From: an uncultured Ruminococcus sp.
GTDB lineage: Bacteria; Bacillota; Clostridia; Oscillospirales; Ruminococcaceae
NCBI GenBank assembly: GCA_902464115.1
Contig: CABQIF010000001.1
Coordinates: 1-51,335 of the forward strand
DNA length: 51,335 bases
Reading direction: 5' to 3'
The notes below the pieces were generated by a model. That model ran no database searches. It was not told the DNA's origin and saw nothing but the letters and a program-made list of their open reading frames with translations. Each line of letters starts with the position of its first letter. Within the stretch, counting starts at the first letter, position 1. A program made the position numbers and the translations under genes. Positions 47,333 to 49,763 of this stretch are shown piece after piece.

Positions 47333-48283
47333 TTATTCTGCTTTCATTGCGTCAATTACTTCCCGGAGAGCAGCTGCACTCTTGCGAACAGCTTCTTCTT
47401 CTTCCGGCAGCAGCGGCGGTGTGATTTCCCGTTCAATTCCGTTTGCACCAACTACGCAAGGCAGGCTCAGACAAACGTCCTTAACGCCGTAACGGCTGCC
47501 GTCCTGCAATGTGGAAACAGTCAGAATCATCTTGGTATCCCGCAGGATTGCTTCTGCAATCTGGCTGACAGACAGTGCGATCGCATAATAGGTTGCACCC
47601 TTGCACTTGATAACTTCTGCACCACCAGCACGAACTTCCTGTTCGATTACATCCTTATCGCCCAGATTGTCGATGTGTGCACAGTAATCATCGAACTTCA
47701 TACCATCAATAGAAGACAGCGACCACGGAATCATAGAAGAATCGCCGTGTTCTCCAAATACATAAGCATGAATATTCTTGATGTTCAGGTTTGCGTGATC
47801 TGCCAGACATGTCCGCAGACGAGAAGAGTCCAGAACAGTACCAGAACCGAATACATGCTTCGGATTCAGACCGGAAACCTGAATGGCTTCATAAGTCAAA
47901 ACGTCAACCGGATTGCTTACAATGATGTAGCAAGCATTCGGTGCATACTTTGTAATTTCTGGCATAACAGATGCCATGATCTTTGCATTGGTCTTGCACA
48001 GGTCAATTCTGGTCTGACCCGGCTTTCTTGCGATACCAACGGTGATGACAACCAGATCGGAATTGACTGCATCTGCATAATCGCCGTCCCGCACATCAAC
48101 TGCCGGACAAAATGCAGTACCCTGCATAATATCCATTGCTTCGCCCTTTGCCTTCGGCTTATTGATATCTACCAGCAGCAATTCGGAGCAAAGTCCCTTA
48201 ATTGCGAGAGTAAATGCGATAGAAGCACCAACATTACCAGCACCAACAACGGTTACTTTTTTTCCCTTTTTCACGAAATCCAC
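47333..48283 (-). CDS. mdh: LDH-like malate dehydrogenase
   Basis: GAGNVG, NPVD, LDSSR and GEHGDS motifs; specificity loop reads ARKPG (Arg, MDH type) rather than QKPG; adjacent to malic enzyme. Confidence 0.8.
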   Translation of the reverse strand: MDFVKKGKKVTVVGAGNVGASIAFTLAIKGLCSELLLVDINKPKAKGEAMDIMQGTAFCPAVDVRDGDYADAVNSDLVVITVGIARKPGQTRIDLCKTNAKIMASVMPEITKYAPNACYIIVSNPVDVLTYEAIQVSGLNPKHVFGSGTVLDSSRLRTCLADHANLNIKNIHAYVFGEHGDSSMIPWSLSSIDGMKFDDYCAHIDNLGDKDVIEQEVRAGGAEVIKCKGATYYAIALSVSQIAEAILRDTKMILTVSTLQDGSRYGVKDVCLSLPCVVGANGIEREITPPLLPEEEEAVRKSAAALREVIDAMKAE

Positions 48284-48379
48284 TTTTCATATCCTCCTAA
48301 CACAGAATGATCTTTGATCGCTCAAAACAAAACCGATACACAGCAGTCTCACAGAATTCCCCACTATGTATTGTCTTTC

Positions 48380-48408
48380 ATTATACCATATCCGTTCCGT
48401 TTTTGCAA
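48380..48408 (-). promoter_or_regulatory. sigma-A promoter for mdh
   Basis: TTGCAA-17 nt-TATAAT with extended TG. Confidence 0.75.
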
Positions 48409-48500
48409 GATGGGAATGAATTTCTTTGCATTTTTGTGATATTTCACAGAATTTCGTAGAATTTCAAAGAAAAAGCGAGCAAAAAGCAATAGAATCGAAG

Positions 48501-48580
48501 AAAAGTAAAACACCCATCCGTTTACACAGATGGGTGTTTTAGTAAGGGGATTTTTATGAAAAAAATTTTTAAGAAAGGAT
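48501..48580 (-). ncRNA. putative small regulatory RNA, copy 1
   Basis: lies between a perfect promoter and a terminator hairpin; no SD-led ORF; CU-rich anti-SD/anti-AUG core; ends approximate. Confidence 0.75.
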
Positions 48581-48586
48581 ACTCAT

Positions 48587-48615
48587 ATTATAACCGCCGC
48601 AAGGGTATTTGTCAA
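48587..48615 (-). promoter_or_regulatory. sigma-A promoter of sRNA copy 1
   Basis: TTGACA-17 nt-TATAAT. Confidence 0.85.
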
Positions 48616-48684
48616 GCAATTTTGCCATACTTTTTTTATTTTACAATTTTCGACAAATGCGTTCACATCTGCCCGAGATCCGGA

Positions 48685-48762
48685 TAGTAAAATGCCCATC
48701 CGTTTGCACAGATGGGCACTTTAGTAAGGGGATTTTTATGAAAAAAATTTTTAAGAAAGGAT
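48685..48762 (-). ncRNA. putative small regulatory RNA, copy 2
   Basis: same organisation as copy 1; terminator stem carries compensatory changes; ends approximate. Confidence 0.75.
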
Positions 48763-48768
48763 ACTTAT

Positions 48769-48796
48769 ATTATAGGTGCAGAGGGGCATTTGTCAA
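48769..48796 (-). promoter_or_regulatory. sigma-A promoter of sRNA copy 2
   Basis: TTGACA-16 nt-TATAAT. Confidence 0.8.
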
Positions 48797-48830
48797 GCAC
48801 TTTTTTCTATAATTCACAGATTTTTTACAA

Positions 48831-49763
48831 TTATGCTTCGTCTGCCGACTCCAACACGTGCACATCCACCTTGTGATACGGAATTTCAATGCCGTTTTCA
48901 TCCAGTACCTGCTTGGTCTGTTCCATCATGTCATAGTAAACCGTCCAGTAATCCGTACTATTGCACCAGACACGCAGCAGCAATTCGATTGCATCTGAAC
49001 CCTGATTTTTCACAACCACATCTGGGGCTGGGTCTTTCAAGGTCAATGGATGTTTCGCAACCGTTTCAAGAATGACTCTCCGAGCAGTTTCCAAATCCGA
49101 TTCATACGAAATTCCCAAATCGAGTTCTACTCGCCGCTGTTCTTTTTCTGTATAATTGACAATTTTTGCAGCAGTTACTTTTCCGTTTGGAATAAAAGCA
49201 ACCGTATTATCTGCTGTAACAATTTTTGTATAAAGAATATCAATCTGTTCCACTTTTCCGATAGTGCCATCAATCTGAACCGTATCGCCCTGCTTTACAG
49301 GTTTCGCAAATAGCAAAATAAATCCACCTGCAAGATTGGAAAGACTATCTTTCAACGCCAGTGCAACGGCGACTCCGGCGGAAGCGATCACTGCAACAAT
49401 GGAATCCATCGGCACATTCAAGATCGAAAGCACGATCACACCTAAAATTGCATATAGAATAATCTGAATCACAGAACGAATGAATCCCACTGCAATGCGA
49501 TCAAGATTGGAACGCTTCAAGCCGTGGGAAACAAGCCGCAGCAGATATTTAATCAATGCATAGCCGATGATTGCAAATATAATGGCAATCACCAACGACG
49601 GAATGGCGTTTTTGATGGGTGTTAGGACAGCATTCAACACCCGGGATGCATGATGGACTTCTTCGCCCATGCTTTCCACAACATTTTCCAAAGGCATGGT
49701 CTGGGTTTCGGTTTCTGATGAAACGGTTTCTAAAACGGTTGTCAGCAACTGAGTTGTTTGCAA
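48831..49763 (-). CDS. mscS: small-conductance mechanosensitive channel (MscS family)
   Basis: LALKDSLSNLAGG, PVKQGD, IPNG, NY..RRVEL..GISYESD and GIEIPY motifs; TTG start with AGGAGG. Confidence 0.93.
   Translation of the reverse strand: MQTTQLLTTVLETVSSETETQTMPLENVVESMGEEVHHASRVLNAVLTPIKNAIPSLVIAIIFAIIGYALIKYLLRLVSHGLKRSNLDRIAVGFIRSVIQIILYAILGVIVLSILNVPMDSIVAVIASAGVAVALALKDSLSNLAGGFILLFAKPVKQGDTVQIDGTIGKVEQIDILYTKIVTADNTVAFIPNGKVTAAKIVNYTEKEQRRVELDLGISYESDLETARRVILETVAKHPLTLKDPAPDVVVKNQGSDAIELLLRVWCNSTDYWTVYYDMMEQTKQVLDENGIEIPYHKVDVHVLESADEA

Follow-up and report, generated by a model that had tools for sequence, protein, structure and literature searches.

The window, the whole stretch of 51,335 nucleotides of DNA that was analysed, comes from an uncultured Ruminococcus sp., and the sequence-only reading of its host as a Ruminococcus was borne out. 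Two closely similar units, here called copies A and B, lie on its minus strand between mscS and ldh:

48831..49763, minus strand: mscS (Pfam MS_channel), the conserved upstream neighbour, outside the RNA
48813..48829, minus strand: phased TGT(A/G/T)AA hexamers, 33 and 22 nt ahead of the −35 box of copy A (family motif, peaks at −22/−33)
48769..48796, minus strand: sigma-A promoter of copy A, TTGACA-16-TATAAT (sigma-70 match; hexamers conserved at 1.00/0.99, spacer at 0.51)
48683..48763, minus strand: small RNA copy A, ~80 nt, 5′ end predicted 6–7 nt past the −10 box (model R1, 100.7 bits; fold)
48721..48763, minus strand: unpaired core of copy A, made up of a 5′ pyrimidine seed, an A/U linker, an anti-AUG and an anti-SD (Shine-Dalgarno) segment (identical to copy B; column identity)
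48688..48723, minus strand: intrinsic terminator hairpin of copy A (fold, inter-copy changes, covariation)
48640..48645, minus strand: TGTAAA hexamer, 30 nt ahead of the −35 box of copy B
48587..48615, minus strand: sigma-A promoter of copy B, TTGACA-17-TATAAT (sigma-70 match; family conservation)
48501..48581, minus strand: small RNA copy B, ~80 nt, 5′ end predicted (model R1, 105.9 bits; fold)
48539..48581, minus strand: unpaired core of copy B (identity to copy A; fold)
48506..48541, minus strand: intrinsic terminator hairpin of copy B (repeat, terminator scan, fold, covariation)
47333..48283, minus strand: ldh (Pfam Ldh_1), the downstream neighbour in the close clade only

The two minus-strand copies, correctly placed 182 bp apart from the letters alone, form a direct repeat of 89 nt with 92% identity (48504–48592 and 48686–48774), and a second repeat of 21 nt spans their −35 boxes at a spacing of 181. 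The core is identical over 43 nt (48539–48581 and 48721–48763), the string quoted earlier covering 40 of these. Within the 2.22-Mb assembly no further copy of the core was found at up to 10 substitutions, and model R1, built from 37 copies, returned nothing besides copies A and B below E 0.5. Each copy folds as one 16-pair hairpin behind a nearly unpaired 5′ half (folding z −7.5 and −7.2; 0 of 200 shuffles as stable for either unit). A simple terminator scan called the downstream copy only, the upstream one having a weaker U-tail. The compensatory changes claimed for the terminator are present: in two places both sides of the stem differ between A and B, and one pair is A-U in one copy and G-U in the other.

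The promoters, with their 16- and 17-nt spacers, are the sole two 12/12 sigma-70 matches in 47800–49600, both on the minus strand. Upstream of them, 45 of 51 family promoters, versus 15 of 192 other consensus promoters, carry a TGT(A/G/T)AA hexamer whose distance to the −35 box is 12–36 nt. In a set of 386 looser intergenic promoters from genome G000 (for example at C5:7181, C12:18769, C23:7268, C34:526 and C46:6781), the favoured positions of the hexamer are −22 and −33 relative to the −35 box. Since the hexamer is also found before genes that we named by eye as rpsL-, pfk-, infC-, rpoB-, eno- and htpG-like, it is probably a general upstream element common to housekeeping promoters; a CiaR-, WalR- or CodY-type site, judged by their consensus sequences, was rejected on the same grounds. 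The promoter of the small RNA (sRNA) thus appears to be strong and of the housekeeping type, and might still accommodate a regulator site. On the ldh side, that gene has its own promoter-like site at 48380–48408, preceded by a near-palindromic TGTGAA-N3-TCACAA (48437–48455, minus strand) that resembles a Rex operator.

The family is present in 38 of the 42 genomes of the Ruminococcus callidus/CAG:254 genus. A DNA search of the first draw found it in 33 of 36 genus genomes and R1 in 36 of 42, with two more genomes (G007 and G031) added by diverged copies recognised by eye; no copy was found in G014 (99% complete), G009, G020 or G021. Copy number ranges from one to at least five per genome, close human-gut relatives having one to three tandem copies where the contig extends to the locus, and the named carriers are all Ruminococcus, among them R. 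callidus ATCC 27760 (locus L068, two copies), CAG:254 (L108, three) and CAG:403 (L074). The anticipated spread over Oscillospiraceae was not upheld: within the searched genomes the family is confined to one genus, and neither R1 nor the promoter-inclusive model R2 found a full copy outside it among the 148–150 genomes, from the family and the order, covered by each search. R1 gave five weak non-genus matches over 150 family genomes (at most 41 bits). With R2, weak matches reaching no more than 45.5 bits came from 20 of 148 non-genus family genomes and ones of up to 38.5 bits from 10 of 150 order genomes, where true copies score 116–130 bits; R1 is insensitive, with the diverged G007 copy reaching only E 0.13, so that diverged relatives may escape it. 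Inspection of 15 weak matches showed eight true gene starts on the other strand, five matches with short ORFs and two lacking the anti-AUG. The weak matches are thus mostly gene starts read backwards, which indicates that the core mirrors a start region. In a pattern scan, those of the matches listed (at least 119) that combined promoter, core and terminator were of the Ruminococcus type, plus one csRNA-like locus.

Several outlying loci deserve description. G012 holds two diverged copies (L189:1579–1691 and L189:8569–8678) in both of which the 5′ seed is altered, one of them also lacking the anti-AUG C, a state that could reflect decay or retargeting. In G111, whose genus also holds the dockerin-rich G259, locus L362 (C5:46452–46555, minus strand; 36.9 bits) combines an intergenic −10-like box, an anti-AUG core and a terminator, and is possibly a distant relative. 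Three further stretches, L358 (G173 C18:3898–4007), L364 (G168 C31:3021–3131) and L379 (G211 C17:54793–54906), carry anti-AUG and anti-SD segments directly after a stop codon and before a terminator, with neither a promoter of their own nor a long ORF opposite; they are possible 3′-UTR-derived start-masking RNAs.

Conservation across the family follows the RNA. In 49 copies chosen by the core alone, the promoter is present in 49. The −35 box (1.00) and −10 box (0.99) are nearly invariant around a spacer at 0.51, the core segments score 0.91 (5′ pyrimidine seed), 0.87 (A/U linker), 0.98 (anti-AUG) and 0.99 (anti-SD), and the terminator letters fall to ~0.7. The terminator stem is nonetheless paired in 99.6% of cells, and 11 of its 15 pairs covary (reached by 0 of 500 shuffles; pairing in slid controls did not exceed 45%). 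Whole promoter-core-terminator units have been duplicated in the family. Read on the plus strand, the same stretch offers a perfect SD and an AUG-AAA-AAA, opening ORFs of 24 and 43 aa in the window, as if the conserved thing were a small gene with an MKK start. The A/U linker, however, varies from 9 to 13 nt among species (12 nt in 23 copies, 11 nt in 21), and its one-base indels break the plus-strand frame between species; the ORFs opposite the RNA range from 4 to 152 aa, one copy has lost the AUG, and the promoter faces the opposite direction. These frame-shifting indels effectively refute the plus-strand gene, to which we give next to no credence. The contrast drawn in the sequence-only reading between that frame and the promoter, core and terminator therefore came out for the RNA, whose features are kept in homologues where the frame is not, and its claim of a minus-strand RNA gene under selection is sustained by the covariation, the promoter in 49 of 49 copies and the broken frame. 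With its own promoter, an intrinsic terminator and a conserved unpaired seed, and no conserved ORF, the element shows the general features of a trans-acting sRNA gene, and the two units are very probably copies of a functional RNA gene.

The genomic position would fit a different origin. In at least 30 of 39 loci the sRNA has mscS upstream on the same strand, ~90–170 nt away, with differing genes downstream, and the terminator scan called no other terminator between mscS and copy A; the element might then be the mscS 3′-UTR with its terminator, acting in cis or processed from the mscS message. Against this, each of the 49 copies has its own promoter, tandem copies duplicate the promoter as well, the copies in G007, G031, G002 and G017 sit away from mscS, and in other genera the element was missing from all 27 mscS loci. 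We regard such an origin as highly improbable, although the sRNA hairpin may double as the mscS terminator. At L006/L068, a gene that looks transposase-like by eye stands immediately upstream of the RNA pair, in the place expected for mscS.

The likeness to streptococcal csRNAs proposed for the core holds in that the best Rfam match is csRNA (RF02379), though sub-threshold: the window scores 30.2 and 24.8 bits against a gathering threshold of 57, with all Rfam matches sub-threshold, while L068 scores 32.4 and the CiaR-box-bearing locus L147 scores 47.2. Like the csRNAs (also called Ccn), the Ruminococcus sRNA is multicopy and often tandem and holds an unpaired anti-AUG and anti-SD ahead of its terminator, and its core aligns with the csRNA consensus of Rfam with few differences. 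In the part of PMC3091779 consulted, 16 of 61 predicted csRNAs have a terminator hairpin only, and the CiaR repeat is given as (N)TTAAG-N5-TTTAAG, 10 nt before the −10 box; csRNAs repress comC additively by pairing, with compensatory mutations as proof (PMC4507080, in part). The csRNAs carry the CiaR repeat where the Ruminococcus sRNA has a full −35 box, and the absence of the repeat noted from the sequence was confirmed, a loose match (one mismatch per half) occurring in 1 of 51 promoters and off the CiaR position, and TTGACA in all of them. CiaRH is reported only in streptococci according to the relevant portion of PMC8186281, and no protein with the CiaR recognition helix within four mismatches was found among 1781 predicted proteins of G000 and 1249 of G002, both sets being incomplete. 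The csRNA nonamer, [A/C]UCCUAAA[A/C], appears to be replaced by an extra 5′ pyrimidine seed; the Ruminococcus sRNA starts AUCCU and has its A-run five bases later, an order related to the nonamer and not the nonamer itself. The hosts also differ, being clostridial here and streptococcal for csRNAs. Membership of the csRNA family was thus rejected on the CiaR box, CiaRH and the Rfam score alike. The shared core amounts to 20 low-complexity bases, which fit descent as well as convergence on SD-AUG-AAA-AAA.

Other analogues are looser. LhrC1–5 of Listeria monocytogenes is a multicopy CU-rich sRNA that blocks translation of the cell-wall protein LapB, a surface-protein analogue, and depends on LisRK and envelope stress while using three redundant CU sites (PMC4132741, in part). 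Rfam gave no LhrC match here. The RsaE/RoxS-type sRNAs of Bacilli aim a C-rich unpaired motif at the SD; they too gave no Rfam match, and the Ruminococcus seed continues over the AUG and the first codons. Among catalogued candidates, HMP2_5069 and HMP2_13603 (97 and 41 nt) have the same host range (CAG:254, CAG:330, OM06-36AC and R. callidus) and FeoA nearby, as do two sRNA loci, and HMP2_5069 is expressed in faecal RNA-seq; their neighbours are led by GT4 and FeoA, with no MscS or LDH in the visible part of the table (PMC8040213). Judged by table rows and neighbours only, identity of our sRNA with either candidate is unlikely. Both catalogue rows probably map to a conserved multi-hairpin element that lies between genes, next to those for a GT4 glycosyltransferase and FeoA (L416:19377–19569, corresponding to G000 C3:9571–9764 at 75% over 197 nt, no Rfam match at E 0.1). 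No description of the sRNA was found in the literature, the PMC8040213 candidates having been compared by the table rows available, and we have apparently a real, genus-wide and so far undescribed sRNA family, new as a family within the already well-known mechanism class of start-masking sRNAs.

Complementarity to start regions was computed for G000, with gene starts and signal peptides called by simple custom heuristics. Core duplexes below −20 kcal/mol occur at 39 of 1580 start regions versus 2 of 1580 mid-gene windows, a contrast that 2 of 40 shuffles reach. Starts of the form AUG-AAA-AAA belong to secreted proteins in 28 of 43 cases, against 209 of 1580 overall. The proposed bias towards exported proteins stands in part: by plain duplex energies the top 100 contain 30 secreted proteins against 13.2 expected (0 of 40 shuffles), with no enrichment in the top 20 (four secreted), while with accessibility, rescored for the best 350 of the 1580 start regions, it is a trend only and not significant (9 of 40, p 0.07). 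The suggested pairing of the 5′ segment with a second SD needs refinement, since the best targets bind that segment within codons 3–8 instead.

The top target in G000 (C179:2164–3060, −29.1, both seeds pairing) encodes a secreted protein with a sortase-type tail recognised by eye, and a sortase gene follows directly downstream; among its homologues, 9 of 34 starts reach −20, mostly in the close clade. The operon (C179:594–3060; L187 and L194) comprises the secreted protein, the sortase and a membrane protein. Homologues of its first gene, which encodes a sorting-like C-terminal tail and exceeds the cut-off of no Pfam family, are present in 41 of 42 genus genomes, frequently as a pair. No orthologue was outstanding in both G000 and G002 among 742 pairs (best −20.3/−19.9), and a single genus-wide target was not found. 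The complement of the 3′ seed matches 56 sites besides the RNA in the 42 genus genomes, and of the 53 that were translated most look, by eye, like signal-peptide proteins, the chief exception being five ArgR-like genes. Hand counts put the SD-U5-AUG-AAA-AAA start at 1.33 per genome in the genus (56 in 42) versus 0.85 in other genera (126 in 148); because it is frequent in those 148 genomes, it may simply mark strong secreted-protein starts. Prediction programs failed to put the known csRNA targets at the top of the ranking (10.1101/2024.11.14.623631, in part).

The sharpest predictions concern dockerin proteins. In G002 (1249 genes from 2.0 of 3.23 Mb), four energy outliers (−31.2 to −27.1, the next gene at −23.4) all carry Dockerin_1 and use both seeds; three of the four are paralogues. 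Shuffling of the 5′ segment alone matched the real top-four energy in 4 of 150 trials for G000 and 0 of 150 for G002. In both genomes, genes with a dockerin and a signal peptide show stronger pairing than the remaining secreted genes (36 versus 173, p 0.005; 29 versus 111, p 5e-5), an excess seen in 0 of 60 shuffles each with CAU and CCCC held in place. Nine of ten scanned members of the largest cluster of seed-complement matches have Dockerin_1 over cut-off. Small secreted proteins with a dockerin at the N-terminus form a family that was detected in 27 of the 42 genus genomes and in none of 248 other genomes; its starts (35 in 25 genomes, three rows having been dropped for a start outside the locus or lack of the N-terminal motif) have a median of −19.9 with 17 at or below −20, compared with a median of −13.3 and 14 of 209 at or below −20 for the secreted genes of G000, bearing in mind that these homologues are kin, not independent, and that the family was chosen from a top match. 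It is often multicopy, with a second dockerin/EF-hand-like part and no catalytic domain in Pfam (L421:3734–4390, L421:4446–5135, L420:9669–10313; G000 C124:31–648). The association is loose in both directions: in G014, G020 and G021, where no RNA was found, the N-terminal-dockerin starts score −18.4, −26.2 and −17.1, and many RNA-bearing genomes have no match to the family at E 1e-12. No sRNA copy was detectable in the dockerin-rich sister genomes G221, G201, G186, G259 and G240, so dockerin systems do not need the sRNA. A search of the literature for dockerin, small RNA and Ruminococcus together found no paper, and a cellulosome review, in the portion consulted, calls double-dockerin proteins rare and leaves sRNA and post-transcriptional control unmentioned (PMC12484212).

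These energies also bear on whether the RNA has message targets at all. It might instead titrate a protein, such as a translation factor or a binder of U/A-rich single strands, or dampen many starts as a general anti-SD competitor, its individual targets being incidental. Forty near-invariant unpaired bases with no single conserved orthologous target would fit this, as would the eight letters of the 16S 3′ tail (as read in G002) repeated in the 5′ seed, the resemblance to housekeeping promoters, the presence of a KhpB/Jag gene and the protein-binding role proposed for the conserved csRNA nonamer (PMC3091779, in part). The order and spacing of the seeds, however, mirror SD-spacer-AUG-AAA exactly, the target energies show clear outliers and not a flat spread, and the 5′ seed contributes target-specific energy, making titration or competition unlikely. 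A Pfam search for Hfq (PF01423) gave no match in G000, but none in the E. coli and B. subtilis controls either.

Short, multicopy RNAs directed against translation starts are often type I antitoxins or regulators of small peptides. A comC-like target would parallel the csRNAs, which target comC (PMC4507080, in part), and an agrD target is conceivable with agrB in five of five genomes tested; the genus carries one to six agrB loci per genome with adjacent agrD-like peptides (L398–L407; G000 C19:14161–14688). Yet agrD starts score only −10 to −22 (−15.2 in G000), no short ORF among 3854 candidate starts in G000 was convincing, and the ORFs beside or opposite the RNA, at 4–152 aa with frame-shifting indels, include no conserved one. 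At the sRNA loci we found no small toxin ORF that lies next to the RNA or overlaps it with extended complementarity, and there was no copy in viral contigs or phage records. An antitoxin or signal-peptide regulator is accordingly very unlikely.

We therefore consider it probable that the element is a stand-alone, trans-acting sRNA of ~80 nt that masks the translation starts of several mRNAs by means of two seeds. Gene anatomy, selection on the RNA strand, distribution and computed complementarity are observed; from them we infer transcription, near-constitutive expression, pairing in cells, repression and the identity of the targets. Transcription of the sRNA would start at its strong sigma-A promoter and stop at its own terminator, leaving an unpaired 5′ half that would mirror a strong start region. 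Of the two seeds, the 3′ one would bind the Shine-Dalgarno sequence, the U-rich spacer and AUG-AAR, and the length-variable A/U linker would join it to the 5′ pyrimidine seed, predicted to clamp an AGAAAGG-like stretch in codons 3–8 or a AGAAAGGA-type SD. Such pairing would block 30S loading on several mRNAs, and additional copies may increase the dose, by analogy with csRNAs. The best-fitting messages are predicted to encode secreted proteins, dockerin-bearing ones foremost. That dockerin proteins are the chief targets is a possibility that we hold tentatively, on the strength of the predicted pairing. Still more speculative is the broader proposal that the RNA serves as a post-transcriptional throttle on the dockerin-bearing (cellulosome-type) secretome of this fibre-degrading genus of the gut, with the genus-restricted N-terminal-dockerin family first, as part of a csRNA-like start-masking principle spread across Firmicutes and uncoupled from CiaRH.

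Hardly any regulatory RNAs have been described in Ruminococcaceae, a family of major fibre degraders in the gut, and by a term search a 2026 review of gut-commensal sRNAs does not mention Ruminococcus in its main text (PMC13750123). A clean genus-wide sRNA gene that is present in a cultured type strain (L068) and has sharp two-seed target predictions is directly testable. If the dockerin targets hold, the control of cellulosome-type secretion would gain a further layer, one of RNA. Another question prompted by the sRNA is that of a common origin of csRNA-like RNAs across Firmicutes; if the proposal is true, csRNA-like start-masking RNAs would have spread over this phylum by descent or by repeated invention.
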